The translations under genes were made by a program, and so were the position numbers. Shown here piece by piece: positions 2,146 through 61,873 of a stretch of 64,000 nucleotides of DNA (positions are counted from its first letter, which is position 1; each line of letters begins with the position of its first letter). The notes beneath the pieces are model-generated. The model was given only the letters and a program-made list of their open reading frames with translations, was not told the DNA's origin and searched no databases. The DNA is from Verrucomicrobiota bacterium (GTDB taxonomy: Bacteria > Verrucomicrobiota > Verrucomicrobiia > JABWAM01): positions 819 to 64,818 of the forward strand of contig JACQHZ010000291.1 of assembly GCA_016198745.1 (NCBI GenBank), read 5' to 3'.

Positions 2146-2163
2146 TTTTTAAACTCAAGCCTC

Positions 2164-17650: not shown

Positions 17651-17788
17651 GTTCGACGAATGGTAGTGCGCAACCTCCCTAAAATGGAATCATAAATCCT
17701 TCGGCTGTTGCTCGACACGGATCGCGCCCGAGAACCATCGGTCGCGTGGACGGCACCGCCGCGTGGACGGATTCGATGGATTTGATTT

Positions 17789-20455: not shown

Positions 20456-20472
20456 CTTGAGTTCTCCTCGGC

Positions 20473-24551: not shown

Positions 24552-24699
24552 GGTTCAAAGAATCGCTGCATGTCCACAATCAGCAGCGCGGACGACTCAG
24601 GGCAAAAACGTCGCACCCGACAATTCCATGCCGCAATTACCCTCAGCCATTCTTCCGTTTTCTTCATCAACGATTCGGCGGTAAAATAGGCTTCTCGTT

Positions 24700-26100
24700 T
24701 CATGCCGGTAGTTTGTTGATCAGGTCCAATGCCTGTTGTGTCAAGTGCTCCCCGGCGCCCAACGCATAGGGCAACGGACGCGCGCCCGGCGCCAGTTTGG
24801 CGTAGCGCTGCGCGGTGTACATTTCGTAGCCGCCATGCCGGCGGCTCTCATCCAAGCCGATATAACCATCGGATCCGTTGCTCATCGCCATGAGCAGGGT
24901 CTCGCGCAAGGGGCTTCGCGCGGCCAGGGTCAGGCCAAATTCCGTGAAAGGCTCTCCGGAATAAAAAACCAAGCCCAGATCATCAATCACCCAAACGTTG
25001 ACCTCGGAAGGCCAGGTCGCGGGGAACTTCCGCCCCGCTTGGATCGCTTCCCTCATCCGTTGCGCCCACTCCGCAAGCGGGCGGACGCTGCCTTTCTTGT
25101 CTTCCACCGACCAATCCTTCTTGCAATTAAAGCCGAGCACCCATTCGAGGCTTGGGTCTTTGTCGAGCGCGGCAATGAACGCCTCGACTTCTGCGATCTC
25201 CCTCTCCAAGAGTTCGACGGGAGGCGGCGGATCAAGGGGAAGCTCGATTGTTCGCGAGCCCGTCACAAACCGGCGCGGCCCGGCGGTCTGGATGCCTTTA
25301 AACACCTGCGCTGCTGCATTGGCGAGGTTGAGGCCGAGATCCTTGGAGTCCTTTTCCATGCCGAACATCGGAATGCAATTCACATCGCCGCACGCTCCCA
25401 GTCCGAACAGGACCGGAGCGCCCGTCGCGACGGTTTCGCTGACTCGCTCGGTCATGTAACCGGGATATTCGCCCGAGAGCGGCGCATTGAAGATCACACA
25501 AGCTGGATGGGCCGCGAATCGAATCCAGCCGGCGATCGGTTTGCCGTTTTGATCGTCAATGCGGATCACGTTCAACCGCGGGTCGATCGGCCGTCCCGCC
25601 GCCAATCCTTCGCGAAAGTCGCGGGTGAACTTCACGCCACCGTTCGGCAAGCGGACCTGGGTGTTGAACGAGGCGCCCGCGATGTACGTGATCCCTTGCC
25701 CAAACCGGGCGGGCCGCCGTGCATCCCAAGCGGTCAGCGCCGCCTCCAGGGAGCGCGACTTGATGAAGTCGAACAACGGATGTTCGCCGGCGAGAGGCTC
25801 GAGAAATGGCGTCGAATGACTGTGGGTGGCCGAGATGATGATCTCTTCGGGACGAAGAGCGGTGTGTTGGCTAATCGCTTGTCGAAGCTCGACGCAGTGT
25901 TCCGCCGGTATGAAGACCAGATCGAGCGCCACCATCAGCGCTCGCCTTGAACCGGACGACAACGCCAGCGCTTTCGCCTGCAGACGGGAACCTGGCGCCC
26001 CCCACTGAACCCTCATATTGGAGTGCAACCCAGGATTGATCATCTCGGGCGACAAGGTAAGGTCACGCGCTGACGCACCGGCATGAAACGATCCATTCAT
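24700..26100 (-). CDS. Neutral/alkaline ceramidase-like hydrolase (low-confidence family call)
   Basis: The ORF table extends to 26745, but the upstream 215 codons are Arg/Gly-rich junk that overlaps the MFS gene. The start MNGSFHAGASARDL at 26100 is chosen. Motif IISATHSHSTP resembles the neutral ceramidase N-terminal domain. Confidence 0.4.
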   Translation of the reverse strand: MNGSFHAGASARDLTLSPEMINPGLHSNMRVQWGAPGSRLQAKALALSSGSRRALMVALDLVFIPAEHCVELRQAISQHTALRPEEIIISATHSHSTPFLEPLAGEHPLFDFIKSRSLEAALTAWDARRPARFGQGITYIAGASFNTQVRLPNGGVKFTRDFREGLAAGRPIDPRLNVIRIDDQNGKPIAGWIRFAAHPACVIFNAPLSGEYPGYMTERVSETVATGAPVLFGLGACGDVNCIPMFGMEKDSKDLGLNLANAAAQVFKGIQTAGPRRFVTGSRTIELPLDPPPPVELLEREIAEVEAFIAALDKDPSLEWVLGFNCKKDWSVEDKKGSVRPLAEWAQRMREAIQAGRKFPATWPSEVNVWVIDDLGLVFYSGEPFTEFGLTLAARSPLRETLLMAMSNGSDGYIGLDESRRHGGYEMYTAQRYAKLAPGARPLPYALGAGEHLTQQALDLINKLPA

Positions 26101-26855
26101 GAACGCCTTTCGGAAATCGCGGGGTGGTTTTCCCCCATCAAGCGGCTGGACAACCGCCGCAGCAGGGAAAGTTCGACGATCAAAGCGAACGCGCCAGCCA
26201 CGGCCAGCGATTCCTTCACTCCCAGGATCCGGGCCATCAGTCCGGCGCTGGCTTCGCCGAGAATGTTCCCGACCAGCATGGTGGCCATCAGTCGGCCGAC
26301 TTGCGGGACCACGTGATCCACGGAGGTATGTTGTGCGGCCATCTGGATCAGGCTCGGGAAGAACAAGCCGTGACCCGTCCCAAACAGCAAACCGATCATG
26401 GCGAACTCGCCGGGTTGCGACGCGAACGCAAGCGCCAGGGCGCCGAACGGCACCAAGCAACCCGTCGCCACCAGCCCAACCCCCGGCAAAAGATGCCTCA
26501 ATCGCGTTTCCAAGAAGGCGCGCGACAAAAATGCGCTGGCGCCATACCAGCCGGTTAAGGTACAACCGCGACAACCAATCCTTCCAATGGCGCGGCCCCC
26601 GGTCGCCGTCCCCGCAAGAAAAGCGAAACTGAAAGCCGCCATGATCCACCCATGCCACGCGAGGTCGAGTCCCTCGCGTTGAAACAAGCGTGGCAAAAGG
26701 AGCATGAGACTCATGGATCCGCCGATCAGAATCTGGCCAATCCATACGACCATCATCCCCGACCGCTTTTCGTCACCGGGGTTCATGACGGTGTTGTTCC
26801 TTTCACCGGCCGCCCGCCCTCGCGTTTCGGAGGAAATTGAAGATGCCATGAACAA
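26097..26855 (-). CDS. MFS transporter, half-length (6-TM, 252 aa); possible split or decayed gene
   Basis: Hydrophobic segments throughout with an MFS-like pattern. It overlaps both neighbours, by 72 nt with the upstream gene and by 4 nt with the downstream gene. Confidence 0.5.
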   Translation of the reverse strand: MFMASSISSETRGRAAGERNNTVMNPGDEKRSGMMVVWIGQILIGGSMSLMLLLPRLFQREGLDLAWHGWIMAAFSFAFLAGTATGGRAIGRIGCRGCTLTGWYGASAFLSRAFLETRLRHLLPGVGLVATGCLVPFGALALAFASQPGEFAMIGLLFGTGHGLFFPSLIQMAAQHTSVDHVVPQVGRLMATMLVGNILGEASAGLMARILGVKESLAVAGAFALIVELSLLRRLSSRLMGENHPAISERRS

Positions 26856-27913
26856 TGGGCGCAGGCGGCCGGGCCATGCGCGGCGAAGACGCCGCCCAGA
26901 CGAAAAAGCTCGGGGTGGCTGCCGTTGGCTTTACAGAGCGGAATCGAATTTCCAAACGCCTCATGGCAACCGGCGAAGGCCGGGCAATCCTCGCGGACCA
27001 CGTCGCCAGCCTTCGCTGGTGCGATCGGTTGGGGCGGAATCGCGAAGGATTTCGCCCCCCCCTGCCGGCCGCGCTTCCGGGCTCTTAGCATTGCCGCCGC
27101 CTTTTGCAGCGCATCCAGAGCCAGATCGTCGCTTCCACGATCGGGTGGGCGCAGCACCAGACAATACGGATCATCCGCGAATAGGGTTGCCATGAAGCAG
27201 TCGAAATCCCGCGCGCGCATCAGCCCCGAAACACTCTTGCCGATGGGACCGGTTTTGAGAATGCCTGCGGCCCGGCAGACATCCTGCATGACGCCGGGGT
27301 ATTCATACTGAATGCGTCGGCCCGTCACGCAATGATTGAGATGTCTTTCCTTGGGCCAATAATGGCCTAAGTAAGGCACTTGAAGAATCTCTTCGTAGTA
27401 ATGCCAAAGCGTCACGGTGTTGACCTGCACGCCAAGAGTCAGAATGCAGCCATCGAGTTGAAGCAACGCTTCGAATGGATTCCCCCGCCCGCATGGCGTG
27501 GGCGATGCGCGGTGCCCCTCCACCAACCGCTCCGCTGAAGCTCCCAAGGCAACCCACGAATGCGTTGGATGGCAACTACGCAAACTGCCCGTGCGCTGTC
27601 GCACTTCTTCGGCGATCACGCCCTGAAAACCCGGCAACTTGCTCGGACAAAGACGCTGCGGACAACGAGCAGCGCAATCGCTGTTGGTGAAATTGGCGGG
27701 GTCGCCCCAGACGCTGTCGCGGAAAGCGGGAACAAGCAAGGTCCCGCGCGGGCCGACTGCTTCGAGCAGGGCATCGACGACGGTGGTTGCGCCGCCTTCG
27801 ACATGTCCGAGCGCGCTGAGCGAACTGTGCATCATCACCGCATCGCCCGCGCGCACGCCGAGCGCGCGCAGGTCGCGGACGATTCGTGATGGGCCAATAC
27901 CAGACGCCTTCAT
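26783..27913 (-). CDS. AAC(3)-family (aminoglycoside N3-acetyltransferase-like) acetyltransferase with a Cys-rich C-terminal extension
   Basis: The N-terminus (DLRALGVRAGDAVMMHSSLSALGHVEGGATTVVDALLEAVGPRGTLLVP) closely matches the Antibiotic_NAT family signature. At 376 aa it is longer than the usual 270 aa or so. The tail contains CPAFAGCHEAFGNSIPLCKANG...ACAHCSWH. Confidence 0.7.
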   Translation of the reverse strand: MKASGIGPSRIVRDLRALGVRAGDAVMMHSSLSALGHVEGGATTVVDALLEAVGPRGTLLVPAFRDSVWGDPANFTNSDCAARCPQRLCPSKLPGFQGVIAEEVRQRTGSLRSCHPTHSWVALGASAERLVEGHRASPTPCGRGNPFEALLQLDGCILTLGVQVNTVTLWHYYEEILQVPYLGHYWPKERHLNHCVTGRRIQYEYPGVMQDVCRAAGILKTGPIGKSVSGLMRARDFDCFMATLFADDPYCLVLRPPDRGSDDLALDALQKAAAMLRARKRGRQGGAKSFAIPPQPIAPAKAGDVVREDCPAFAGCHEAFGNSIPLCKANGSHPELFRLGGVFAAHGPAACAHCSWHLQFPPKREGGRPVKGTTPS

Positions 27914-27915
27914 CC

Positions 27916-29325
27916 TCAGGTTCGTTCCAATGTTTTCAAGGCGCGGTCCAGCAGCGCCTTGACCTTCTGCTCCGTGGCTTCATCCATGCCCGGCGCCGGA
28001 TCGGGGCCGGCCATGATCTCTTCCCACCGACGACGCGCGCGATCTTCCAGGGAAGTTCCATCCTTGCTCTGCCAAAAATGAAATCCACTGTGGCTGAACA
28101 ACGGCGCCTTCCACAACGCCGTGCGCACATGTGCCGCCGTGTGGTCGGCGCCAATGAAACCGCCCCCTGCTCCAACGGCGCGGATGGTTTCAAAAGCCAG
28201 GTGTTCATCATCAAACGATTCACGCCGGCCGAGGCGATTCAAGGCGTCGGCCAGCTCATCATCGATGATCAACTGGATCGGGCTGCAGACTTCGTCGCCG
28301 GAGAGGAGACCCGCGTTGATCGTGGCGGCATTGAAATACAGCAGGGACGGAATCACGGTCAGCATTTTCTGTGCCGCCGCCTCCGAGCCGGGTTGCTTGG
28401 CATCCGCCAGCCCGGTCTGGCCCACGTGCTGCGCGCCATAGAACCGCGCCATTTGGCCGTGGAGCAGGTTGGCCACCGCATTTTCCGGACGGCCATAACA
28501 GTAGGCCGCCCGCCGCATATCCAGCGGCAGAATGGAGCAAAGAAAATTCAACGTTCGGGTTCCATAGTACAGACGCTGTAAAATGTTGCAGAAAATGTCC
28601 TCGGCCAGGTGTTGCGCCAGCGCGCCCGCGAGCGTAATCGGTCCGCTGCCGCCCAGGGTCGTCATATTGGAGATCGAACACGGATAACCGCGTTCAGCGA
28701 AGTAGAGGAACTGCTCGGCATCCGTAGCGGCAAGTTTGAGCGGCGAGATAAGGAACATCGTGCCGCGCATGGATTCTTTCAGCGGCATGCCGAGCGCCTC
28801 CGCGCGCAAACCATGGAACTCTTCGATGAAGGGGCATAGTTCCAAACTCTGAATGCCCTGGTCCATGTCGATGCCCAACTTCCAGCAAAGATATTTCACA
28901 TGGAGCGGATGGATCCGGTGCGGCGCCGGCACCGGACAACCCAGGGTGCCGATGCCAGTGACGTTGGGCATCGCCTTGGCCGTCTTCACGTACGAGGCCA
29001 TCCGATCCTCCGTCCAATCCTCGAATTGATTGGTTCTCGGATTCAGGTATTTCCCGATGTAAATGCCAACGCTGCACTCCACGCGCGGTTCCGCGACGCG
29101 CTCCGCGGCGGGTTCCGACTCGCCGATAAACCGCTCAATCAACGCCTGGGGAAAACGTGCGACCTGGGTCGTCCGGTTGACATCCGCCCCAAAATCAACC
29201 AGTCGATCAAGAATTCGGTTGCTCTCGATCTTGACGCCGATTTCCGCCAGGATGCGCAACACAGCGCGGTGGATGCGTTCCTTCTCGCTCGCAGTCAGTT
29301 GTTGAAAGCCATGGATCGTTTCCAT
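27916..29325 (-). CDS. MttB-superfamily (trimethylamine methyltransferase family) protein, non-pyrrolysine member
   Basis: Start METIHGFQQLTASEKERIHRAVLRILAEIGVKI at 29325 gives 469 aa. The N-terminal motif and length match the MttB/MtgB family. There is no in-frame TAG. It is translationally coupled to the AAC(3)-like gene (stop/start overlap at 27913-27916). Confidence 0.7.
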   Translation of the reverse strand: METIHGFQQLTASEKERIHRAVLRILAEIGVKIESNRILDRLVDFGADVNRTTQVARFPQALIERFIGESEPAAERVAEPRVECSVGIYIGKYLNPRTNQFEDWTEDRMASYVKTAKAMPNVTGIGTLGCPVPAPHRIHPLHVKYLCWKLGIDMDQGIQSLELCPFIEEFHGLRAEALGMPLKESMRGTMFLISPLKLAATDAEQFLYFAERGYPCSISNMTTLGGSGPITLAGALAQHLAEDIFCNILQRLYYGTRTLNFLCSILPLDMRRAAYCYGRPENAVANLLHGQMARFYGAQHVGQTGLADAKQPGSEAAAQKMLTVIPSLLYFNAATINAGLLSGDEVCSPIQLIIDDELADALNRLGRRESFDDEHLAFETIRAVGAGGGFIGADHTAAHVRTALWKAPLFSHSGFHFWQSKDGTSLEDRARRRWEEIMAGPDPAPGMDEATEQKVKALLDRALKTLERT

Positions 29326-29329
29326 TGTT

Positions 29330-32023
29330 TCACCGTATATGTTTGGCGCGCGCGGCGATTTCAGCTTCCGCCAGCGCGCGATTATAGATTTCAGCCTGGC
29401 CGAATGACCCGGCAAAATAATCGCCGATTTCCTCCACGGCGCCTTCGGGATACAACGTGTTGCCGTTGCGTCCGAAATGGATATCGCCGGCGTGCGCCGG
29501 CAACTCGGCAGCAGCGCCGGCAGCCGCCTTTTTCCCGTCCACGTAAAGGATCAACCGATCCGCCGCTACGGTGGCGCCCGCTTGGTTCAGCACAAGCGCC
29601 GCGTGATGCCATTTGTTCGGCTCGATTTGATCGTACGTAAGCCATGTCCCCGGCCAGACCGCCTTTGCCCACATGCCTCCTCGCAGGGCGCCTTTGTGGA
29701 TAAAGAGATTGAGGCCGTTCCCAGATCCGCCTTCCTCATACAACATCTGGCGTTTGGTCACATCGGCCGCCCTGAACCATAGAAGAACGGTGCGATTGGC
29801 GTAGGGACCGCCCGAATTGATCGTCGGGCAATTCAACACGGAGACATAACTCTCCTTTCCGTCAAGTTCCAGTGCTGCGCCTCGCTGCGGATCATCCACC
29901 CAGTTGCTTCCCGCGACGAAGCCGAGATTGTTGTTGCCCGACGAGTCGTAAAGGAAACGATAACAGGGTTTGTACCAGCGCCCCGCGCCCCAGATCCACT
30001 GCAGCAAGCCCTGTGAGGGCGGGCGTTTTATGATGTAGCGCAGCACCAGGTCCTTCTCTGTCTGCAGACCGACGAATATCGGGACCGCGTGAGCAGCCTC
30101 GGCCTTCGCATCACCCGAGGCCCTAAGCTCGACAAGGTACTGGCCCGTCGAACTGAACGCGTGCGTCACTTTCTCGCCTTCGCCGTTCTTGCCGTCGCCG
30201 AAGTTCCACGTCAGTTTCGTCAGTTTTCCATTCGGCGCAAAAGGATCGAGCGCGGTGAATTCGACGGGCTTGCCTGACTCGACGAACTGCGACGCGACAC
30301 CAATCGCCACACTTGGCGGACCGCCGCGCCAGACCACGGTCATTTTTTTCGATTGTTCCGATACATGGAAAAATGCGCCTGCTTGCGGCACATCGACCGT
30401 GATTGGCCCGAATTCGGGCACGATGATCTCGACATTGAGGCGGGGGCGGCGCGGCGCGTGCGCATAGACGAGCCACTCGCGGGTCGGCGGTTTGCCTTTC
30501 GCCAGCGCAAGAGCGTACACGGGAATCTCGGTTTCGAGCGTCCACGGCCATTTTGCATCGAGACTCGTGTCGAGCAAAAACCAACGGTCCTCCTTCTTAT
30601 ACTCATCGGGAATGTCGGTCTGGTAGGGATGCTGATGGGCGCGATTGGGCACAAGTTCGCCTTTCCGCCAAAACTCGCGCAACACGGCGTTCGTATGGAC
30701 GCGGTCCACCGCCTCCACGATTGACATGAAATACGGCCCCGCGTACTCGACTGTCTCCAACCAACCGCGAAACTCGCGCACGACGCGCGGCCGCAACAAC
30801 CACATCCCGAACTGCACAAAACCGCCGTAACGCTCTGGCGTGAACGACTGTCCGAGGCGCGCATAGAATTTCCGTTTCGCGTTGGGTTGATCGGTCGCAT
30901 CGCCGTCCCATGTGGACATCTCGAACCAGAACCGCGGATTGAGCTTGTGCGCTTCTTGCAGCATAAAAATCCAGTTCATGGACTCGATCTGCGGACTCCA
31001 CACCGTGAAATCGGTGATCGGCATCCAGTTGTGGAGATAGTAGGAGGGCGAACCGCCGCCCCACGCCAGCGGCCCGGAATCAATCCGTCCGGGGAAATAC
31101 CCGGAGTACAGCTTCCAGTATTCAGGCGGTTCCATCGGCCGTCCCATGTGCGGAGGGCCGAGCACTTCATAACCAACGAACATGGCGTTCTTCTTCCACG
31201 CGGAATTGACCAATCCCTCCCGCATCGCCGCCTGCAACGCGCGGTAGCGTTCGATCCATCCTTCGGACACGACTCTGCGCTTGAAATCATCGTCGCGCCC
31301 CTTGCCATACCGTTCCAGGTATCCCTTGGAAGTCTCGACTTCATTCCATTGCAACTTCGAGTGTTCGTTGTTAGAAATGAAAATCACCAGCGGCGGATCG
31401 GGATACCATTCCTGGAGTTTCTTCATGAAGATGCCAGCCGTCCATTTGCCGCCCACTTCTCTCCAAGGTTCCACGGGGCCGAAGGGCGAGACCTTGGGTT
31501 GAATCGTGCCATCGAGTCCCGCCTCGTTGGGATTCTTTTCGGGTGGCAGATCGAGGTACGCCTTATCGGTGGTCAACAACGATTCCCACTGCGTGCCGAG
31601 AAACGTGAGAGGCAGTCTGAGTTGCGCCGCTTTTTGGATGCGCAACTCGTATTCCTTCATCTTGGCCTCGATCCACTTTTCACGCTCGGGGGCGCCCGGC
31701 TTCCATGTTTCCTGGAGCCACCGGTCCGTCGGCGGATGCGAAAACCAGGGCAGGACATGGCGCCCCTGATCGAGCAACTGAAACTGGTATTCTGGAGTGA
31801 ACCCATCGGCTCCGCCTTCGCCGACACCCCAATGCGCCGCCAATGGAAGTGGTCGTCCCGCTTCGCTGTGGTTCGGGCGGAGCGCCTCGACGCGGACCGC
31901 TTCGGGCACGGGCAGCGGTTTGTCCTCTGCCCTCGAATGTCCTGACGGCAAAAAGAGGGTCATCGCGTGGATGATGAAGATGGCGGTTGAGAGAATAGTC
32001 GTTGCGCCTCGCACGAGTCTCAT
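29330..32023 (-). CDS. Secreted multidomain protein: N-terminal glycoside-hydrolase-like region plus PKD domain plus C-terminal LamG domain
   Basis: Signal peptide present. The PKD signature is LTWNFGDGKNGEGEKVTHAFSSTGQYLVELRASGD. The C-terminal LamG pattern is RLILYVDGKKAA. 897 aa. Confidence 0.6.
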   Translation of the reverse strand: MRLVRGATTILSTAIFIIHAMTLFLPSGHSRAEDKPLPVPEAVRVEALRPNHSEAGRPLPLAAHWGVGEGGADGFTPEYQFQLLDQGRHVLPWFSHPPTDRWLQETWKPGAPEREKWIEAKMKEYELRIQKAAQLRLPLTFLGTQWESLLTTDKAYLDLPPEKNPNEAGLDGTIQPKVSPFGPVEPWREVGGKWTAGIFMKKLQEWYPDPPLVIFISNNEHSKLQWNEVETSKGYLERYGKGRDDDFKRRVVSEGWIERYRALQAAMREGLVNSAWKKNAMFVGYEVLGPPHMGRPMEPPEYWKLYSGYFPGRIDSGPLAWGGGSPSYYLHNWMPITDFTVWSPQIESMNWIFMLQEAHKLNPRFWFEMSTWDGDATDQPNAKRKFYARLGQSFTPERYGGFVQFGMWLLRPRVVREFRGWLETVEYAGPYFMSIVEAVDRVHTNAVLREFWRKGELVPNRAHQHPYQTDIPDEYKKEDRWFLLDTSLDAKWPWTLETEIPVYALALAKGKPPTREWLVYAHAPRRPRLNVEIIVPEFGPITVDVPQAGAFFHVSEQSKKMTVVWRGGPPSVAIGVASQFVESGKPVEFTALDPFAPNGKLTKLTWNFGDGKNGEGEKVTHAFSSTGQYLVELRASGDAKAEAAHAVPIFVGLQTEKDLVLRYIIKRPPSQGLLQWIWGAGRWYKPCYRFLYDSSGNNNLGFVAGSNWVDDPQRGAALELDGKESYVSVLNCPTINSGGPYANRTVLLWFRAADVTKRQMLYEEGGSGNGLNLFIHKGALRGGMWAKAVWPGTWLTYDQIEPNKWHHAALVLNQAGATVAADRLILYVDGKKAAAGAAAELPAHAGDIHFGRNGNTLYPEGAVEEIGDYFAGSFGQAEIYNRALAEAEIAARAKHIR

Positions 32024-32035
32024 TCGTTTTTCCTT

Positions 32036-34944
32036 TCAGTCGCTCTCGACGACGCAGGCGCCATTCTGCGGAGGGAGCAGTTTCCCATCTTGGATCCGAG
32101 GCGCCCGCAACAGCATGGCCTTGGTCTTGCCCGATGCGAATTTCATCGTCACCGCCACATCCGCATTCTTCACGGCATAACTGAGTCCGCTGAGCGCCGG
32201 CGCCTGGTCGAAGGCCTCGAAAAACTCCACATTCACCGTTTGCTTGACCTGACGTTTCCGCATGAGACTGAATGGGATCGGCGTGCCCGCCCACGTGGCA
32301 TAGGCAGTGCCGATCATCACTTCCTTCGGCTCGCCACCGGCAACGGTTCGTTGCGCCTTGAAGGACGCAAGCGGCCACTGGAAGGTGAACGCCCCGTCCG
32401 TAACCGTGCCGCTCAAGTCGTGCGGCACATCGTAGCCCGGACCCTTGGCTCCTTTCCAGTCCACCAACTTCATGTTGGCAAGACTCGTCTCCACCTTGCC
32501 AGGCGGATAGAACGGCCAGTCCACGTTGTGGGGGGCATCGGATTTGATTACATCCACCAGCAGGACGCCCTCTGGTCGCGCCACAAAATAGCGCACGATT
32601 TCCACCCCGGGATAGAGTGGCCGCTGCGGATCAGCCGCGACGATCCCCGCCGAGAACCGATTCCCTCCATCGACCAGGCAGGAGAGTTGGCGACTCATGG
32701 ATGAATCGGCCTCATCCACCACGATGCCGCTGGCGGCAAGCGAGGCGCTGGTGAACGAAGCCTGCGGATGCGAGTAGGAGATTCGGCCGGCTCTGGAATC
32801 CGCCCGCTGACCGCGGAGATAGAGCTTGTGGCTGAACAAATCATGCGCATTCCGCTCCCAGGTTTGACCCCAGTTCACATCGATGCCGTTGAAAGTCTTC
32901 GGTTCGCCAAAACGAACGAAGGTATATCCCGTCCCCTCCTGAATGGAGGAGGCCTCCTTCTCACGCGCTTTTGCCACCGCCAAATCCGTTTTCGCGCGTG
33001 GCGAACAGAAGAACCAGCGCTCGTTGCTGTGATAATTCGCCTCGGATTGGCTGAAGATCGCTGTCGGACGGACGCGTCCAGCCTCGTCCGGATAGGGCGT
33101 CTGGTATCGGGCGAAGAGGACATGGCGCAGGCCGGCCAACTTCAACAGCTTCTCGAATTTCCCGCGGCGATACACATCCGCGCCCGCGTAATGCGCGGCC
33201 TCGGCGATTTCATCGAGACAGTCGGCGTGTCCCCGCTGATAGCCTTCCGAGCCTTCGATCGTCCACCCGTCGGCGTCAAACCCATATTCGACTAACTCGT
33301 GGAATCCAAAGTCCCAATTCAAGGCGCGACCCGCCATCACCCAATGCCCGCACGCCAGGGCAATGGCCAATTGGTTGGACCGATATTCCGCCGTCTGGTT
33401 CGAATACTGGCCGTTGTGCAGGCTCAGGCGCTTCATCAGCGGCAGCAAGAAATTCGTTTCAATCTCCTGTTGTTCGGTTTCGGTGAGGCAATGACCCGCG
33501 AGCAGAAAATCATACGCCCAGGGAAAACCGCTGCACAAATACGACTCGCCGAGGACGCACCATCCGAGCAGGTTGTTGTAGCCCGTGGCTTGTGCGTTCA
33601 CGAGTTTCATGCGCGGCGCGATCCGGGCGTAGCCAAGCAAAATCTCCTTCGCCCGGTCGGCGTACTTCTTCTCGCCCGTGAGCGCGAAGGCCAGGGCGCA
33701 TTCGTAAGACATGTTGGCGTTGAGGCGATGGAACTCCGTCACCACTTTCTCGCGCAAATTGCGATTGCCGCGAATCCACTCCTTGCAAGTTGGACAATAG
33801 AGTTGAGTGAGCATTTCCTCGGTCAGTGGCGCTGTGGCGAACCCGGTGCTGCACTTGGGACAAACAAAACCTTGATCGTAGCCTCCGGATGTCTCGGGAA
33901 GGACCACGCGCGGCTTCAGGAAATTCTCCGCGTTTTCCACGAGCGAGGCGCGGGCCGCGACGAAGTCCGGCTCTTGCGCGCACCATTCGCGCAACGCGGT
34001 GAGCCGCGCCGCGTCGCAGCGGACGCGCGGGCGGTCGGCCCCGGCGTAGCGGGGCGGAACCGCGCCGAAAACGGGCAGCTCCTGCCAGCCGCGCAACACC
34101 GTGGTATCGGTCTCAGCGAGGCCCTTCACTCGAAGAATCACCGGCGCTTCTTCCGTGTAAAGCGGTTCGAGTTTTGACGCGACTTCAGCGGGAATCGACA
34201 GAATCGCGACAACGACTTTCTCCGCTCCCGCTTTCACCATGAACGGTTCCTCTTCGGAGACGAGAGTGAAATGCTTCAGGCGTTGACGATCAAATACCAG
34301 GGCGCACTCACGCTCAACGTTGTCCCGGTTGTGAATCTTCAAGTCATAGCGATACCGATATGCGTCTCCATCCTTTTCGAAGCCCTTGACCGTCTCGTCA
34401 TAGTCGAGCGTGACCGTATACCGAACGGCGCGCAGGTTCTTGACCCGCCATTCGTAGGTTGCATTCGGGCCGGTCTTCCAACCTGCAAATGAGAGCCGCA
34501 ACAGCGTGCGCGGGTCTTTGCCGTTGTCGGGACTATCGTCATCGAGCCGCAACTCGAACCGCGCCGTGCGCCAGACCTGTTTGTAGCGGGACGAAAACTT
34601 GAAATACCAGTTGCGCGCGGTGGCGAAACCGGGGACGTTTTCCAAGGTCATCCAGGCCTGACTCGGCTCTCCATCCATCCAGTATTCAAAACAGATCGCA
34701 TCGCAACCGGCCAACTGATCCTTGAGCGGCGTGAGATCCTTCACCATCGCGGTGCTGTCACGCGAAACCGAACGCCACCGGAGACAGGCGCCTCCTTTCG
34801 GATCCTCCACTGCGCTCACCTCCTTCGCGCCTTCAATCTGCCAATTCGCGAGGTTCTTAAAGTCATCCAACCGGAGCGCGTTGTCATTGCCACCCGCTGA
34901 AACGGATTTGGCGCTCGCCACGACGAGCAAGATCGCAAGGATGG
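32036..34944 (-). CDS. Secreted heparinase II/III-like / alginate-lyase-like alpha/alpha-toroid protein
   Basis: Start at MEMSILAILLVVASAKSVSA (signal peptide); the upstream part of the table ORF is junk. The central region (NGQYSNQTAEYRSNQLAIALACGHWVMAGRALNWDFGFHELVEYGFDADGWTIEGSEGYQRGHADCLDEI) resembles lyase toroid domains. Confidence 0.45.
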
Positions 34945-34956
34945 ACATCTCCATTT

Positions 34957-37900
34957 TCACGGTGTATCTCCATGTTTCGTGTTGGTTGAACCGACGGACG
35001 CCGTACCGTGCGCTTCTTTGCCGGTGATCCCCTCTTTGACCGACACGCGATACTTTCCGGGCGGGTCCGTCAGTTTGCCCAACGAAATTCTTGCGGCAAA
35101 ACAACCCCGGGCATCCGTCGCCGCCACAAAAGAATGGCTGGTCGCTTGCCCGTTGGGATATTCCACGGTCACTTCGAGAGGCCAAATCGCGGGAATACTC
35201 TCTTTCTTGGATCCGCAAACCGCGCCGGCCAACTCGATCTCGCGCTCCTTGACATTCACCCGTAGATCGATGCTCTCCACAGCCTGGGGAGGCAACATGA
35301 CCATTTGCCAATCGGCAGGCGCAATGGCGCCATTCCACTCGATTCGTTCACTCTTGCGGCGCACGGCAATCCGTTCGTGTTTCATCACATCGTAGGCCGC
35401 GTCACCCGGATGAACGAAACTGACCCCGATTTTCTGCGGTTCCCACAGGTTCAGGTTCACCAGAAACACATACCGCGCCTGGCCGCCGTAAAGCTGATGC
35501 GGGCTGATGAAATCGCTGCCGCTGACAATCAAGTCCGCCGGCTTTAGAACGGGTGTTACCGTCTCTTTCAATTTCATGACTTGTTCGCCGTGGGTATTGA
35601 TGACGCGATGGATGGGATCGTTGCCCGTCGCGCTCAGTTCGTGGTTCACGACCTCAATATCCATCGCGCTTGGAGGAAGCAGGTCCGACCGTTTTGGATC
35701 GCTGAAGAACAGGCGCTTCCCCGGTGTCTTCGCGAACTCGACGATCTTCTGCCAAACGCTTTTCGCGGAGTAACGATGATGAAAGAGAACCAATGCCTGA
35801 TATTCTTGCAGCCGTCCTTCGAGAACGTCCTGGTCCAGAACCAAATCCACCGGCGCATTGGCGCTGCGAAGGGCGGCGTAGGTGTAATCCAAGAATCCGG
35901 GCCAGCGATGTCCCTCGTGCACCCATCCCGCAAGGTTCGATTCGCTAAGCAGCACCGCCACGCGGCGATTCGGACGAAATTCGAGCCGGGCGAGCATCGG
36001 TCCGTAGCGGTGACACCAGTCCGCCCAGCGGATGAACTCGGCCTTGAGATCGTCGCGGCTCAGGATTCCTTGTTCCTTTTTCGCGCCGCTCCCATTCCAA
36101 TCGCCAAGCGCCCATTGGATCATCGAGACGCCTTTCGCGATGGCCATCTGGGTGTTTAATCGGAAATCGCCGACGCACCAGCTCAGATCAGCATCCTTGC
36201 TCTTCTGATCCATGTCGCCCGACCACCAGCCGGGCAGCCCCGCGAGCGGTTTGAAAGGACGCTGCTTTTGACGATAGCGGTGACGATCGTAAAGGAAATC
36301 GAGCCGGCCGTAGCTGACGGTATAACCCGGCGTGGGCTCCCAGGTCGAGGTATAGGCGTAATCCATCACGCAATCGAGTTCGCCGCCTTCGCTGCCGCTG
36401 ATGTTGAGCGTGGTCACATCGGGCCGGACCGTTTTGACCCACTCGTGACATTGACGGTAAGCGCGTTCAAACGCCGGTGCGCTGCAATCGCCCGGCAATC
36501 CGATGATCCGGGCCCATTGAATGTACGGTTCCTGATCGGGAAAAATGGTGGCGGGTTCGGACACCGGAGGAAAGGCCGGCCCCTTTAAGCCGGTCTGTTG
36601 CATGAAATGTGCCACCGCATGCTGGTTGTAATCGCCGATCTGCAATCTTTTATTCACCTCTTCCAGCCGCAAGTCGTATTCATCCTGAAACGAAACAAAC
36701 CGCAGGCCCGGATAATCTTTTAGCCGTTTCATCACCGACAGAACGAACTCCTTGATGAATTCCTGCGCGACCGGGCTTGAAGGCGAAGCGATGCTGCTGG
36801 GGAGACTGCCGGTGCTGTTGTTAAAATCCTTGCCGTCCGCCCAAGCCAGAATCTGGCAGATTTCCGCTTGCCCCTTCGGACTGAGCCGGCCGTCTTTGTC
36901 AAAATAATCCCGCGTTTTTTCCGGCGAAATTCGCGGATAAAACGAATGATGAAACACATTAAAATTCACCATGGCAGAAATACCGTAAGTGTATGCCTCA
37001 TTCATCCGCGCCTCGAGACCGGATTCCGGGAAAAGCTCATACGTCACCCACGTGTCGATATGCCATTTCCGCAGCATTTCATACTGCCACGATTCAGTGA
37101 TGCCGCCCCAGAGACCAAGTGAAAATGCGGGCGGACTTTCGGGCTGTACGCCCAAGACGATCTCCGGACTCGAAGCCACCTGCTTGGCGCCATCCCATAA
37201 CTCGGCGCTAACACCGTAACGCCCCGGTCTCAGGTCCGTGGTGTTGAGCGCGAAGCGGTTTTCATGGGAAGGCAGAGCGCCGAGGACCCATTTGTTGGTC
37301 GAACCCTCCGCATGCGCAACAATCCGCGCCTCAGTTCCGCGGCTGTAGGAAAGCACGCTGAGCGCGACTTGCTCGCCGCGTCGGTAGCCGCGCCTCGGCG
37401 CGTGAAGCAGAATCCCGCCGCCAAGCGATTGGATCAGCCCCTTGTAGGCAGGGTCGTTCCCGTCACGCCAGAGTCGTTTCACCTCCTCGTCCGAAAGCGG
37501 CGACCGCAGAATCGCGAACTCGTCCAGGATGGCGTTTGCGAAGCCGCTGTCAGGTTCAGATGTGCTACCGTGCCTGAACCCCAGGTAAAATCGGGGATAC
37601 ACGCCATACTGACACTTGTTCAACGGAAGCGCGCCATCCCGCGAGCCGACCAGTTCGCCGTCAAAATAAAACCGTCGTTTGTCCGCGTCCCACACGCCCA
37701 CGACGAAATGCCATCGTTCCGACAGATCATTCATGAAAGGATGAAGGTCGCCTTTCACGAAGTCCTGATGCGTGCCCGCGTAGAAGAGCATCGCGTCGCC
37801 CGATGTTTGGTACATCTCGAACGTGGCGTTGCCGCTGCAATACAACGTTCCGATTTGAGCGCCCTTGGGCTTGAACCAAAGCATCACGCTGCCGCGATCA

Positions 37901-38250
37901 AGAGGAAAATTCCTCATGTCAATCCAGTAGCTCGGTCGAGCGCCGCCGGGCGCTTGTTCCGGCGCGCCGACCCACAGGCCTTGACCAATCCTCCCCGGCT
38001 GGAAGACCGACACGCCGGTTGTTGCCGCGGCGTTCGTGGCCGCCGATTCCGCGCGACCAAGCGAAGTGTCCCAGGAAGACCCGATCACGGGCGCCATCGT
38101 TCCGTCCATCGGCGCGTAAAAAAAGACCTTGGTTATGGCGTTGCTGCTGCTGTTTTGACTCTCGGCGAGCAGGTTCATTGCCCCATCGCTCAAGACCAAC
38201 AGAGAAAGAAAAATGCTTTGGACGATGGGTTGTGGAAAGATTCGTTTCAT
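34957..38250 (-). CDS. Secreted LamG-domain plus GH42-like TIM-barrel glycoside hydrolase candidate
   Basis: 1097 aa. The N-terminal LamG pattern is RFYFDGELVG. The remainder resembles GH42/GH35-type barrels. Family assignment is weak. Confidence 0.45.
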   Translation of the reverse strand: MKRIFPQPIVQSIFLSLLVLSDGAMNLLAESQNSSSNAITKVFFYAPMDGTMAPVIGSSWDTSLGRAESAATNAAATTGVSVFQPGRIGQGLWVGAPEQAPGGARPSYWIDMRNFPLDRGSVMLWFKPKGAQIGTLYCSGNATFEMYQTSGDAMLFYAGTHQDFVKGDLHPFMNDLSERWHFVVGVWDADKRRFYFDGELVGSRDGALPLNKCQYGVYPRFYLGFRHGSTSEPDSGFANAILDEFAILRSPLSDEEVKRLWRDGNDPAYKGLIQSLGGGILLHAPRRGYRRGEQVALSVLSYSRGTEARIVAHAEGSTNKWVLGALPSHENRFALNTTDLRPGRYGVSAELWDGAKQVASSPEIVLGVQPESPPAFSLGLWGGITESWQYEMLRKWHIDTWVTYELFPESGLEARMNEAYTYGISAMVNFNVFHHSFYPRISPEKTRDYFDKDGRLSPKGQAEICQILAWADGKDFNNSTGSLPSSIASPSSPVAQEFIKEFVLSVMKRLKDYPGLRFVSFQDEYDLRLEEVNKRLQIGDYNQHAVAHFMQQTGLKGPAFPPVSEPATIFPDQEPYIQWARIIGLPGDCSAPAFERAYRQCHEWVKTVRPDVTTLNISGSEGGELDCVMDYAYTSTWEPTPGYTVSYGRLDFLYDRHRYRQKQRPFKPLAGLPGWWSGDMDQKSKDADLSWCVGDFRLNTQMAIAKGVSMIQWALGDWNGSGAKKEQGILSRDDLKAEFIRWADWCHRYGPMLARLEFRPNRRVAVLLSESNLAGWVHEGHRWPGFLDYTYAALRSANAPVDLVLDQDVLEGRLQEYQALVLFHHRYSAKSVWQKIVEFAKTPGKRLFFSDPKRSDLLPPSAMDIEVVNHELSATGNDPIHRVINTHGEQVMKLKETVTPVLKPADLIVSGSDFISPHQLYGGQARYVFLVNLNLWEPQKIGVSFVHPGDAAYDVMKHERIAVRRKSERIEWNGAIAPADWQMVMLPPQAVESIDLRVNVKEREIELAGAVCGSKKESIPAIWPLEVTVEYPNGQATSHSFVAATDARGCFAARISLGKLTDPPGKYRVSVKEGITGKEAHGTASVGSTNTKHGDTP

Positions 38251-38277: not shown

Positions 38278-39681
38278 CTAGAATGGGTAGTCTCCCCCGT
38301 TGGGATGAACGCTACGACCTTCCACGAAACTCCACGAATACCAGGCGACATGCCAATCACAGAAGAGGACGTTGATCCCATTCGAATGCCTTGGAAACGC
38401 GTAGGAGGTGGGTATGGTGAAAGTGCTTGATTGATAAAATCCGCCGTCGAAGCAGAAACAAATCCTCGATGGAATCGGGACGGCCAACGCGGATGACTCA
38501 AGCACTTGATACTTGATCGGATTGGTGAACAAGTAGCTTCTGCCGTAGGTCGTGTCGATGCCCGGTTCGCCGGGCATCGGGGTTGACGGACAATCCACGC
38601 TGCATGGATAAGCAACGCGCGTGCCCAACGGTCCGCCATACTGCGGATATTTCTTGCCGAGGTACCCCATCCAATCCAGCGTGGCAACTCCGCGCAGCCA
38701 TTCCGGCCAGGGCGCGAAATAGACGGAAGCCGGCGGAAGATACTCCTCATTGTCATTCATATACAGGACCAGCGCCGTTCCGATTTGCTTCAGGTTGTTC
38801 ATGCACGCAATCGATTTCGCCTGGTTTCTCGCCGATTTGAGCGATGGCATCAGCAGGGCAGCAAGAATGCTGATAATGGCGACCACCACCAGAAGTTCTA
38901 TTAAGGTGAAGCTCCGCTTGGACGACGCCCCGGTTCTTCGTTTCGGGATCATCTCGCCAACCGATCCCATGTGCCGCATCATCCATTGTCGGTCTTTTTC
39001 TTGGGCGGCGGCCGCAAGCAGATTCGAAAAGATTGGCGCCGTATGCCGGTAAACCAGTTCGACAGCGCCTTCCGCATCACGAGTTCGGAGAGCTTGAATG
39101 ATGCGACGGTGAGTGCGAAGGACGCCTTCGGTGTCCGCGCGATGGTTTTCGACGCTGACGCCGCTCATCCAACTGAACACCTGCACGTGCGCCCCCTGGA
39201 CGAGCGCCTCCACGCGCTGGCTGTTGGCGAGGCCGACCAACAGACGGTGAAACTCCAGGTCGTAATGATCCGCCGCGCGCCAGTCGCCCTTTCGCGACGC
39301 CGACTCCATCGCGTCGCAGGCGTGTTCCATTTCAGCCAGCTTGAACTCCGAGAACCCTCTTCGGCACGCGATCCGCACCGCAAGACACTCCAGCGCTGAG
39401 CGAATCTCGAAGGTCTCCTCAATTTCCTCCACCGTGCAATGCCGCACAAAAAACCCCGCATTTCGCACCCGCTCCACCAGTCCTTCGCCGACCAGTCGCA
39501 TCAGCGCCTCACGAATGTGAAATCGTCCTGCGCCGAGATGCTCGGCGAGCGGCGTCTCGGTCAGGTGCGTCTCCGGTGGAAATTGCCCTTCGAGAATTGC
39601 ATAACGAATTTCTGAGTACGCCCGATCCACCGGCGAACCGGCGGTCAAGGGCGGATTCAGCCTGGATTTCATTCTGATCAT
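38278..39681 (-). CDS. Fusion protein: GntR/FadR-family regulator (HTH plus FCD domain) fused in-frame to a pseudopilin-like TM helix and DUF1559 (H-X9-DG) domain
   Basis: - Residues 1-230: GntR HTH ([52 protein letters not shown]) plus an FCD-like helical domain.
- Basic linker: [11 protein letters not shown].
- Then [25 protein letters not shown] (N_methyl motif) and a DUF1559 domain ending [13 protein letters not shown].
- Single uninterrupted 467-codon ORF, first gene of the 11-gene operon. Confidence 0.75.
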
Positions 39682-39694
39682 GCGTATTGTTTAT

Positions 39695-39708
39695 CATTGT
39701 TAACAATG
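39695..39708. promoter_or_regulatory. Perfect 14-bp palindrome CATTGTTAACAATG (GntR-type operator candidate) inside an AT-rich promoter region 39685-39830
   Basis: It matches the GntR-family operator consensus (T.GT-N-AC.A). It lies 14 bp upstream of the GntR-pilin fusion start codon. The surrounding 150 bp are markedly AT-rich compared with the window. Confidence 0.4.
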
Positions 39709-40017
39709 ACTGTCAATATAAAAAAGAGCGCGAAACAACAAGCAAATGGTTACAGCCAGGCAGCGCCAAATCGACCTCTTTTGCATTAAACGTTTACATA
39801 AGTTAGAACCGTGACGATTGTGTCAAGTTAGGCGGCTTTTTTGAGGGGCGTTTTGATCTGGGCGTGATCGAGCAGGCGCTGCACTTCCGTTTCTCCAGGC
39901 GCGACCCGGGGCGGTGTAACCGTCCGCGTGGGATTGGCGGAGCGCTTGCGAGCAGTCAGCCCCAGCGTGGCCGCCGGCGGATGATGCGTTTGCTCGAACG
40001 GGAGGAAGCTGTTCTAA

Positions 40018-45705: not shown

Positions 45706-47424
45706 TCAGAAATCAAGCAAGTAAGGTGAATTTCCTCCTCGACTGATATCGATAAGCCATGCTTGCAGCTCTCCGGACTTCTTAGCCGCAACGTGTCCAT
45801 CTACAAACAGAACGTTGTCGATTCCGCCGTGCCGGCCTGGAAAATAAGTATTGTAAGTGGGAAGATTTTTCAGTGTAAAGTAGCCGTAGTCCGGAGTTGT
45901 CAGATACGCCTGGTCCGCGGCCAGGACGCTTCGGCTCGAATCTGCTATTTGGGATAGCTTGGCGGGAGGGTATTGACCGGGGTTGGTCCAGGGAGGCGTC
46001 TGGCCGTTGGCCGGCCAAGCGCATGGTCCATAGAAAAGGACTCCGTAGGTGTAATACCTCAGGGACGTGACCTGTTTCGTAACAGGACAGTATAGAATGC
46101 TGGTTGGCCTGGTATAATCTGCTCCGAAAGGTTTCAGATATTCTCCAAAAAGTTTCGCGGGCACCTCGGTTCCGTTCGAGATTGGAGGAAAGGATTCGTT
46201 GTTGTCCTGAGCATACATGTTAACAACCATCCCAAGTTGCTTCAAATTGTTCATGCAGGCAATGCCCCTGGCCTGATCGCGCGCCTTTTTTAGCGCCGGA
46301 GATAATAAGGCCGCCAGAACGGCAATGATTGCGATAACGACGAGTAATTCGATAAGTGTGAATGCGGTTGCGCGGCGACCGTTTCTATTGCCGACGGCAG
46401 CGGGTTCCAACTGCGGGGTGGATTGATCGGCGGGACAGGATTGTTCAGCCCGACAAGCCGGGGTTGATTCGCGAACGATGAGGGATACCGGCAAGATGAT
46501 GTTGTCAACGTTTCCGACGGACATCAATTGCATGAGACTCGATGCGGCGCGTCGACCGATTTCCTGTTTGGGCGGGGCGATCGTCGTGAGGCGGGGTCTG
46601 ATGACGGTGGCAATGGGCATGTCGTTGAATCCGGTGATTGCCAGATCCCGAAACGGGTCAAAGCCGAGGTCGATGGTGGCGGCAATGATCCGGGCCGCCA
46701 GATCGTCACTAAAGGCGAACACGGCCAAAGGGCGTTCTCGTTGCAAGAGCACCCTGAACGTATCAACGTTCCAGTCCATCGCCCAATGTCCCTGAAACGG
46801 AAGGCCATGATCGCGCAACGCCTTCCGGTAGCCGAATGATCGAGCTTGTCCGAACGGGCCCCGCCCGCCGCCAATGTAATAGATTCGACGATAACCGCAT
46901 TGAATCAGATGCTCAACAGCCAGAAAGGCGCCGTGTACATTGTCAAACCCCACATAGGGGCCGGGAATCCCCCGGATGGGTGCGGTCACAAACACCGTAG
47001 GAATCCTTTTCTGGGATAGTTCCTGATAAAGGCTTGGCGGAAACGCATGGTGGGGCACAATCAATCCATCCACTTGTCTCTCCAACAGGACCCGCACGGC
47101 TTTCGCAAGGATGGGCGTCGATGTGGGAACCAGACGAATCAGGAGTCCATGGTCATGGTCATCCAGCACCTGCTCGATGCCCTGCAGGATGTCGGAGAAG
47201 AACGAGGCGGTTAAGGTGGGCATGATGACGCCGACCAAAAACGATTTCCCCATTCGTAGGTTGCGGCCCAAAGGATTCGGTCGATACCCCAATTCGGCAA
47301 CCTTTTTCAGGATGCGTCGTTCGGTTCGCTTGCTGATCTGCCCACGCCGGTACAATGCACGGTCAATGGTTGCCCGGGAAACCCCTAAAGTGCGAGCCAA
47401 CTGGGAGGAGCCGATATTCATCAT
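45706..47424 (-). CDS. Fusion protein: LacI-family regulator (HTH plus PBP-like domain) fused in-frame to a pseudopilin-like TM helix and DUF1559 domain
   Basis: - N-terminus: [50 protein letters not shown], a LacI HTH.
- About 280 aa of PBP type-1 pattern.
- Linker NRNGRRATA.
- Then [24 protein letters not shown] and a DUF1559 domain ending [14 protein letters not shown].
- One continuous ORF of about 572 codons, first gene of its operon. Confidence 0.75.
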
Positions 47425-48084
47425 GCGGGCACGTGCCCGTAATTTCACAGAATGACACATTGGCCAGTATTGTCAAGAGCATAGCTGAAAAAAAATTCCT
47501 CCTTACGTCCGGATTTGGGGGTGGCAAGACTTTTTTCTGGGTCGGTTTGGTCGCGCTTTTGAAGGAGCGTTGAGATTCGGTCTTGGAATTGGACATCGGG
47601 GATGAGCTTTCGGATTGGGGGTGGAACCTTTTCGATGTTGGCGTTGCCTGTCTGCCGTGCTCGGCACAGGCAGGCGACTCGATGAGTTCGCGGCGGACCA
47701 TGGCCACGTCGATTTGCGCGAAACGCGCTTCCAAGGTGGGTTGCCCGTTCAAGAGCACTTCCAGATGCTGGGGATTTTCCAGATTCTTTGCCAGGGGCGT
47801 ATCGGCGACCTGCCTGTGCGGCACGCAGACAGGTCATGGCCTGAAGCGTTCGGCTAATGCAGTGGTTGCCTGCCTGTGCGTGCCGCACGCAGACAGGCCG
47901 CTGCGGCGACGCGCGTCCGGCTCATCCAGATTCACCATCCCCGCCACGCGGATTGAGGGATCGAGCACGCGGAAGCAATTCTTGATCATCCAACTGACGC
48001 GCAACCCGTGCCCGATCACACCCAGCCGAAGCAGTTTGGATTTCATGATGCGAACTCTCCTCATTTCTGTTTCCGAAAAAACAC

Positions 48085-61111: not shown

Positions 61112-61873
61112 TTACTGGTTGTCAAACCAGGCAGGGTTATGGCCTTGGATGAGGTCATAACTGTGCCAACTGACGTGAAGATCCACCCAAAGCACGTTGC
61201 TTCCTCCGTGGTGCCTTCTGCCCGGTTCCTGGCTCGGCAAAGGACCGTTTCCAAAACAGACGTAATCCGCACTGCCATCACCATCGGAATCGAGGCACAC
61301 GACCGTCTCGGCGGGCTGGGCAATATTACTGAGAGGTTTGATCCCAAAGTATGCCGTGCTCGCATAGTTGTAGCTGTAACTGAGTCTGTTTAGCGACCAC
61401 TGTTGTGTCGGCGGTCCTGCGGGACAAAAAAACACATTGGTGGCCACATAATTTGTCAGGCTATTGTACCAATAATCACAAGCTGGAAAGTAATCGTTGT
61501 TGTCATCAGCATACATGCGATACGCAAATCCAATCTGCCGCAGATCATTCATGCAAGCAGCCGATTTGGCGGACCCGCGGGCATTTTTCAAGGCGGGCAA
61601 CAAGAGACTGGCCAGGATGGAAATGATGGCGATGACGACCAGAAGCTCGATGAGCGTGAAGGCATGGGATGATGGAATGATGGAATGATGGAGTGGTGTG
61701 GGACGATGGTTGTTCCGTCTTTCAACCCTTCCCATTACTCCAGCGTTCCAGCATTTCATTGTTCCATGCGTTTGCATCGTGAATCGTTCGCCACGTCGAA
61801 TCCGTCCTTTGGCGGATGTATCGTTCAGGTTGGAATACCGATTACTTATCACTGATAACTGGTTTCTGATCAC
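61112..61873 (-). CDS. Prepilin-type N-terminal domain plus DUF1559 (H-X9-DG) pseudopilin-like protein, translationally coupled to the upstream regulator
   Basis: Contains [25 protein letters not shown] and the C-terminal [12 protein letters not shown]. Its start overlaps the regulator stop (ATGA at 61870-61873). Confidence 0.8.

Follow-up and report, generated by a model that had tools for sequence, protein, structure and literature searches.

A GntR/FCD regulator fused in frame to a DUF1559 pseudopilin at the head of a glycan operon in a Verrucomicrobiota genome

Transcriptional regulators of the FadR subfamily of GntR proteins (e.g. NanR, LldR, PdhR and CsiR) have in common a winged helix-turn-helix (HTH) domain and an all-helical FCD domain with conserved Asp and His residues. 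Pseudopilins of the DUF1559 or H-X9-DG "PulG-like" kind are found in Planctomycetota, Verrucomicrobiota and Lentisphaerota; in many members of the first two phyla they outnumber every other paralogue family, with 67-74 genes per genome, some of them essential. Here we describe a gene in a 64,000-nucleotide stretch (the window) of contig JACQHZ010000291.1, from a metagenome-assembled genome (MAG) of a Verrucomicrobiota bacterium, in which these two kinds of protein are joined: the first two genes of an operon, encoding a GntR/FCD repressor and a DUF1559 pseudopilin, form a genuine in-frame fusion.

The fusion open reading frame (ORF) has both domains of the FadR subfamily, and likewise a GT..AC-type palindrome in its own promoter and a position at the head of a catabolic operon, but unlike any described member of that subfamily it goes on to a membrane segment and, beyond that, an extracytoplasmic domain. 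With the DUF1559 pseudopilins its C-terminal 210 residues share the N-terminal signature FTLIELLVV...C.NNLKQIG, the pilin fold and a C-terminal H-X9-D, and the glycan-utilisation operon setting that is frequent in that family is found here as well. It differs from them in three respects: ordinary DUF1559 leaders have a median length of about 26 residues as called, whereas the fusion ORF has a folded protein of 257 residues instead; DW replaces DG in the C-terminal motif; and the Pfam and TIGR04294 scores fall slightly below threshold.

Two further systems are similar in outline. The regulators ToxR, CadC, TcpP and TfoS, the last of which links glycan (chitin) sensing to transcription, have the same order of parts across the membrane, but they lack a cytoplasmic effector domain, their transmembrane helix is not a prepilin signal and their DNA-binding fold is of the OmpR or AraC type, unlike that of GntR; the likeness concerns a possible working mode and not family membership. 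Pilin-type signal peptides are also known on archaeal sugar-uptake proteins that are processed by the prepilin-type peptidase PibD, but in these the leader is short, the fold is a true solute-binding one and no regulator is joined to the protein. In the literature on DUF1559, on glycan-locus pseudopilins of the Planctomycetes-Verrucomicrobia-Chlamydiae group, on membrane-bound LacI and GntR regulators and on regulators released by prepilin peptidase we found no description of the architecture, which an earlier note on this DNA, made from the sequence, had likewise taken to be undescribed. Both halves come from known families, and their combination defines a class of regulator-pseudopilin fusions of which this GntR/FCD case is apparently an independent member; since the nearest relatives of its regulator half are unfused, it probably arose in a separate event.

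The fusion gene and its junction

The encoded protein is identical to GenBank entry MBI4026330.1, which lies on an 81-kb contig of a Verrucomicrobia MAG and is labelled "FCD domain-containing protein"; the start is called there at M4, giving 464 aa. Pfam and NCBIfam confirmed the domain order given in the earlier note, i.e. GntR, FCD, basic linker, pilin segment and DUF1559-type head (Table 1). The GntR, FCD and N_methyl matches (the last PF07963, residues 254-277, 29.3 bits) were found as expected there, and the prepilin model TIGR02532 scored above its cutoff (22.9 versus 16.3); the remaining expected match, to SBP_bac_10/DUF1559 (PF07596, residues 283-320), reached 22.9 bits and so stayed just under the gathering score of 23.3. 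The nearest homologues (33-47% identity) do bear PF07596. The H-X9-DG model TIGR04294 remained sub-threshold (16.2 versus 19) because the motif reads H-X9-D-W, so that the H-X9-D part of the motif named in the earlier note is present and its final Gly is not.

The regulator half contains both the GntR HTH domain (PF00392) and the FCD domain (PF07729) that mark the FadR subfamily, and in the AlphaFold model the helical bundle of the latter extends to about residue 237 (helices 84-237). Its free relatives (P0002-P0004 and P0241; here and below, our own identifiers) are 41-47% identical to it, and D141, H145 and H191 are invariant between them. These free homologues are 256-258 aa long and end in the same VGE plus short tail, which the linker of the fusion matches in position and length; a cut at S257↓F258 (the arrow marking the candidate cleavage site) would therefore yield a regulator of 257 aa, the length of the free homologues.

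The pseudopilin half starts with the only strongly hydrophobic segment of the protein (Kyte-Doolittle windows of 19 residues above 1.6 begin at positions 254-266, with a peak of 2.97), and the 15 residues preceding F258 carry a net charge of +4, which agrees with the earlier prediction of one membrane segment of the pilin type behind a linker of positive-inside character. The elements of a class III signal are in place at the junction S↓FTLIE (Ser as the small residue and, behind it, a hydrophobic stretch of about 20 residues that has Glu at +5), but the segment begins at residue 258 behind a folded domain of 240 aa and not behind the short N-terminal leader of pilin-like proteins. In the AlphaFold model of the whole protein a winged helix and helical bundle (17-237) are followed by a disordered linker (predicted local distance difference test, pLDDT, below 50 for residues 238-255), a 50-residue helix (260-310) and a small beta-sheet head; the predicted template modelling score is 0.47, and the two halves are therefore without fixed contact.

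The pseudopilin half belongs to the superfamily of type IV pilins and GspG. Among the structures of the PDB a profile built from 115 relatives matched nothing but type IV pilins and GspG, and the half has the lollipop fold of these proteins (a long alpha1 helix on a beta-sheet head) and not the two-lobed alpha/beta fold of solute-binding proteins. The Pfam name SBP_bac_10, which recurs as a name of the family in older literature (PMC2754498), is a legacy label that does not fit the fold, and the earlier proposal that DUF1559 would serve here as a sensor with a solute-binding-like fold finds no support.

At the junction, regulator homology stays in frame up to VGE (residues 241-243, with Gly-Glu invariant), and the mature pilin sequence FTLIELL starts 14 codons further on. 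There is no in-frame ATG, GTG or TTG between M244 and F258 and neither half is continued in the other two frames, so that no single substitution or indel would restore two working genes. Two simple derivations could be rejected: a point error in a stop codon would leave the pilin without a start codon, and the ATGA at the M244 codon is no ancestral stop/start overlap of the kind found in L005, since the VGE homology shares the frame of its ATG.

The locus comes from a single source without a replicate assembly, and local errors can occur in MAGs; an assembly or sequencing artefact, with the genes separate in the real genome, is nevertheless very improbable. Besides the fact that the two genes are not recoverable by any single-base change, no reachable stop leaving a usable start between M244 and F258, the neighbouring long ORFs (1100-1500 codons; up to 1494 aa) are unbroken, so that the sequence is not error-ridden, and base composition is continuous over the junction. 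Analogous fusions also occur in independent assemblies, namely P0250 (in two SRA runs), P0131/P0387, P0272/P0389 and P0083/P0134. Searches of metagenome contigs at JGI gave no match to the junction peptide written as degenerate DNA, the best match to the regulator half in metagenome contigs was only 23% identical, and exact-protein look-ups of P0001, P0083 and P0390 returned no record.

Recurrence of regulator-pseudopilin fusions

The same order of domains recurs elsewhere: database searches revealed about 20 further regulator-pseudopilin fusions in public data, in MAGs of Verrucomicrobiota, Omnitrophota and Capsulimonadaceae, and some look planctomycete, judged from their DUF1559 half. Three types of regulator are involved: LacI with a periplasmic-binding-protein-like (PBP) domain (P0121, P0124, P0125, P0127, P0130, P0145, P0153 and P0430), AraR-like GntR with PBP (P0083, P0131, P0134, P0135, P0178, P0390, P0428 and P0429) and GntR with FCD (P0250, P0272 and P0358). 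The database labels of these proteins name the regulator domains only (e.g. "substrate-binding domain-containing protein" or "FCD domain-containing protein"). Fusions to other proteins were also found, for instance to a URO-D-like enzyme (P0190) and to an uncharacterised domain (P0080).

The three other FCD fusions are about 30% identical or less to the one described here and have Gly at -1. The fusions frequently precede genes for Laminin_G_3 proteins or glycoside hydrolases, a setting that resembles the window. P0250, like the LacI-type P0130, is followed by Laminin_G_3 proteins and glycoside hydrolases, and the locus of P0272 contains sialidase, N-acetylneuraminate-lyase-family and sialate-esterase genes, i.e. 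a sialic-acid locus, where regulators of the NanR type would be expected. P0083 and P0178 are probably from the same MAG as the window, judging from the neighbouring accessions MBI4024997, 4026330, 4026335 and 4027605, which would bring the number of fusions in that genome to four.

Fusion is rare and adjacency common. A sample drawn from GTDB species-representative genomes gave 88 evaluable pseudopilin genes; none of them is a true fusion (0/88), but a LacI or GntR gene lies directly upstream on the same strand in at least 10 of the 88; this is a lower bound because LacI and GntR were the only regulator families used as probes. Six long open frames upstream of pseudopilins in the reference genomes (L013, L014, L019, L056, L074 and L086) were rejected as spurious, being of low complexity and without recognisable domains by eye.

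A neighbour-joining tree of the AraR-like regulator halves places the fused proteins in at least three clades, with free regulators in between. Within fused clades full-length identity is 71% (P0083/P0134), 67% (P0178/P0428) and 52% (P0390/P0135), and between P0083 and P0134 the linker has diverged beyond alignment, with indels, whereas both halves, the open frame and the small residue at -1 have been kept. For the regulator half of P0390 a free regulator is the closer match (68%); the gene of the latter precedes a GH106 gene, with no pilin, and the fused and unfused states therefore interconvert.

Such a pattern bears on the explanation that the fusion is a near-neutral or mildly harmful accident, in which a deletion joined adjacent operon genes without any special mechanism, the regulator working irrespective of its tail and the pilin half being perhaps dispensable, given dozens of paralogues. 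The rarity and scatter of the fusions, the unfused closest relatives of each half and the large number of DUF1559 paralogues per genome would all suit it, and the intermingling of fused and free regulators would fit short-lived accidents as well. Initiation at M244, which would give a canonical 14-aa leader, may moreover supply some prepilin. We nevertheless regard it as rather unlikely, because several fused clades have persisted over the distances given above while both halves remained conserved and indels in the linker did not break the frame, because four fusions appear to share this MAG, and because, by reading, no Shine-Dalgarno-like sequence precedes M244.

One protein that does look like a plain accident, and indicates that some of the fusions probably have such an origin, is P0132 (524 aa, from outside the window), in which two complete pseudopilin modules stand in tandem, with FTLIELL near residues 11 and 300. 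Its second module looks topologically unworkable, since the leader would have to re-enter the cytoplasm, and the ORF has the appearance of an error or of a read-through without function. Downstream of P0130, in an Omnitrophota MAG (GCA_043797665.1), a 342-aa ORF without a Pfam match overlaps a 213-aa DUF1559 ORF by about 40 nt (L009, 16993-18619), which could represent either one more pair of regulator and pilin or a fusion broken by a frameshift.

Possible processing, tethering and release

The junction sequence itself is strongly conserved. In all 24 fusion proteins examined the residue at -1 is Gly, Ala or Ser and is followed by F-T-L-[IV]-E, and the linkers are mostly basic, the net charge from -15 to -1 ranging between 0 and +7 and exceeding zero in 22 of the 24. 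The Ser at -1, on account of which processing had been called unlikely in the earlier note, does not speak against it within the family: among the 115 nearest DUF1559 relatives, ordinary prepilins with a short leader, -1 is Gly in 54, Ala in 33 and Ser in 19 (17%). Roughly half of the fusions lack a Met within 25 residues of F+1, so that their pilin half, which is conserved nonetheless, is probably made only through the fusion.

The reading we favour, at a probability of roughly 0.45, is that the product is a polyprotein that prepilin peptidase would resolve into a free autorepressor and a mature pseudopilin, the regulator probably acting as a giant prepilin leader. Membrane topology, cleavage, binding of the palindrome and response to an effector are inferred here. 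The regulator half would fold in the cytoplasm and the pilin alpha1-N helix would insert N-in/C-out as a signal anchor, after which the prepilin peptidase of the cell would read the basic linker with Ser257↓Phe258-TLIE as a class III signal peptide. The cut would free a regulator of native length, which could then bind the palindrome CATTGTTAACAATG of its own promoter and respond to a cytoplasmic metabolite via the FCD domain; the mature pseudopilin would stay membrane-bound, with regulator and pseudopilin present 1:1. The active site of prepilin peptidase faces the cytoplasm and pilins need processing before assembly (PMC10191384).

This polyprotein model would account for the conserved cleavage motif, the native length of the product, the unrelated partners and the rarity of fusion without loss of function. 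The existence of non-regulator partners (P0190 and P0080) suggests a general tolerance of any cytoplasmic N-terminal extension that is later removed, and since the regulator has an effector domain of its own, with D141, H145 and H191, no periplasmic sensor would be needed. The model also overlaps with the accidental origin discussed above, because cleavage would render accidents of this kind harmless.

The main alternative is a different fate of the same product, namely that it stays uncleaved and acts as a membrane-tethered one-component regulator of the ToxR/CadC kind, with the GntR/FCD dimer anchored by the pilin helix and binding its operator from the membrane, and with the periplasmic DUF1559 head modulating its activity through binding of glycan or contact with pseudopilus machinery. 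This was the interpretation of the earlier note, and the topology it assumed is possible, the order of DNA-binding domain inside, one transmembrane helix and periplasmic domain being that of the ToxR family. It is also in line with the persistence of the fusions in evolution and their recurrence with three regulator families, with the observation, as cited in PMC7888679, that an artificially membrane-tethered Lac repressor still represses inducibly, and with the fact that Ser is not a canonical -1 residue for the classical prepilin peptidases (PMC10191384). We nevertheless consider it unlikely, as a mere anchor would not need the full cleavage motif and the Glu at +5 that are conserved in all fusions, Ser at -1 is normal within the DUF1559 family, the head has a pilin fold and no known sensor or solute-binding fold, the regulator already contains a cytoplasmic effector domain (FCD), and a non-regulator partner has been fused in the same way (P0190).

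Quite improbable, but the furthest-reaching possibility, is a Rosetta-stone reading in which the fusions would point to a signalling link not recognised before in glycan-utilisation loci of the Planctomycetes-Verrucomicrobia-Chlamydiae type, and in which the pseudopilin of a locus and its regulator would form one functional unit: cleavage by the peptidase, or extraction of the pilin into a pseudopilus, would time the release of the regulator and so couple glycan capture or secretion at the envelope to transcription of the locus.

Several points weigh against processing as proposed in the polyprotein model. We know of no prepilin with a folded leader of about 250 aa, and no gene for prepilin peptidase or for type II secretion or type IV pilus machinery is present among the genes of the window, to which that search was confined. 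The rarity of the fusions and their interleaving with free regulators count on the same side, as does the fact that public data hold a single copy of this exact locus (one contig of one MAG), for which no second assembly was found. Known prepilin leaders, which vary in length, end in Gly or Ala (PMC10191384).

The locus and the other pseudopilin genes of the window

The promoter palindrome described in the earlier note, CATTGTTAACAATG, is perfect, and it extends into an imperfect inverted repeat of 17+17; its form and position suggest that it may be the operator of the regulator. A scan for the sigma-70 consensus found no promoter on the strand of the gene and no -10 element paired with the TTGACA hexamer. 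The gene heads a glycan operon, as had been noted, of about ten co-directional genes, with domains that include Laminin_G_3, PKD plus Laminin_G_3, MTTB-like, Antibiotic_NAT-like, sulfatase, BNR_2 and GNAT, and with three genes without a Pfam match. The sulfatase and BNR proteins of the earlier note are thus present, but for its lyase-like proteins Pfam revealed no lyase domain in this operon; a heparinase/alginate-lyase-like protein (41594-44959) belongs to the upstream operon.

Table 1. Features of the fusion gene, its promoter and operon, and the other pseudopilin loci in the window
Feature	Position	Strand	Basis or remark
Fusion ORF, 467 codons	38278..39681	-	Single uninterrupted reading frame
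GntR winged-helix DNA-binding domain, residues 19-79	39445..39627	-	Pfam PF00392, 52.6 bits (cutoff 27); AlphaFold2 winged HTH
FCD effector-binding domain, residues 89-214	39040..39417	-	Pfam PF07729, 81.7 bits (cutoff 24.3)
Disordered basic linker or "leader", residues 238-257, candidate cut S257↓F258	38911..38970	-	pLDDT, tail alignment, charge
Class III signal / pilin alpha1-N hydrophobic segment, F+1, E+5	38845..38910	-	PF07963, TIGR02532, hydropathy, motif scan
Remaining pseudopilin: alpha1-C helix and DUF1559-type globular head	38281..38844	-	
C-terminal H-X9-D-W motif, variant of H-X9-DG	38353..38388	-	Sequence reading; also in P0005
Perfect 14-bp palindrome, 14 nt upstream of ATG, candidate GntR-type operator (autorepression)	39695..39708	.	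Unique in the window at 0-2 mismatches
TTGACA, -35-like hexamer, immediately upstream of the palindrome	39711..39716	-	Read by eye
About ten co-directional downstream genes	16613..38250	-	Pfam
Second fusion: LacI HTH, PBP-like effector domain, prepilin segment (↓FTLIELL), DUF1559	45706..47460	-	MBI4026335.1
Split pair: GntR-HTH+PBP regulator (61870-63054), about 110 nt, pseudopilin (61112-61756, ↓FTLIELL)	61112..63054	-	
Split pair: URO-D-like gene (1205-1969), pseudopilin (2164-3033)	1205..3033	+	

A six-frame motif scan combined with Pfam scans located four pseudopilin genes in the window, each heading an operon of carbohydrate-active enzymes and each preceded by a gene for a cytoplasmic protein, a regulator in three cases and a URO-D-like enzyme in one. 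Besides the FCD fusion these are a second fusion, of the LacI type, and two split pairs, none of which had been mentioned in the earlier note. In the LacI fusion neither ATG nor GTG occurs among the 54 codons that lead up to F+1; a 76%-identical free LacI regulator (P0122, L005) ends in an ATGA stop/start overlap with the next ORF. The URO-D-like protein of the split pair is of a methyltransferase family, and its pseudopilin has a mature end that begins with Met and not Phe (G↓MTLIELL); P0190 (584 aa, from elsewhere) is the fused counterpart of this pair. A further GntR-HTH+PBP regulator (8246-9394, + strand) lacks a pseudopilin and has a BNR_2 gene as its immediate downstream neighbour, so that the pairing of regulator and pseudopilin is frequent but not obligatory in this genome.

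Several Verrucomicrobia pseudopilins, namely that of the GntR-type split pair (61660-61756, - strand), P0005, P0030, P0041 and P0062, have in common a long conserved leader with the end ...R.PP(L/S)HHSIIPS.HA↓FTLIELL. Conserved prepilin leaders are unusual, and this one could either have a function as a leader or stem from a conserved DNA element upstream that is read in frame.

Some other genes of the window also deserve mention. The sulfatase/BNR operon includes an MTTB-like gene (trimethylamine methyltransferase family; 27916-29415, - strand) and an aminoglycoside-3-N-acetyltransferase-family gene (26783-27913, - strand), which together with the URO-D-like gene hint that methyl or acetyl groups are stripped from sugars. 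At 40018-41657 (- strand), where the upstream operon ends, a GH42 beta-galactosidase-like ORF of only 399 aa covers profile positions 49-269 of 376, and a 108-aa ORF follows closely; this may be a truncated or split gene. Large ORFs of 235-1183 aa without a Pfam match at E<=0.001 are found at 17789-20623, 24700-26745, 32036-35338, 12169-15720, 44981-45688 and 59631-61067, two of them directly downstream of pseudopilin genes.

The association of DUF1559 pseudopilins with regulators connects the regulation of glycan operons to a pilin-like apparatus in a concrete way: at the heads of such operons the pseudopilin gene routinely sits directly behind the regulator of the locus, and the pair has been fused repeatedly and stably. 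If the regulator is removed as a leader of 257 residues, the substrate range of prepilin peptidase would be much wider than has been thought and a polyprotein strategy would exist in bacteria; if it is not removed, these proteins would be the first membrane-integrated one-component regulators of the LacI and GntR families. Should the Rosetta-stone reading be true, it would provide a first function for the DUF1559 family and the first transcription factor released by prepilin peptidase.

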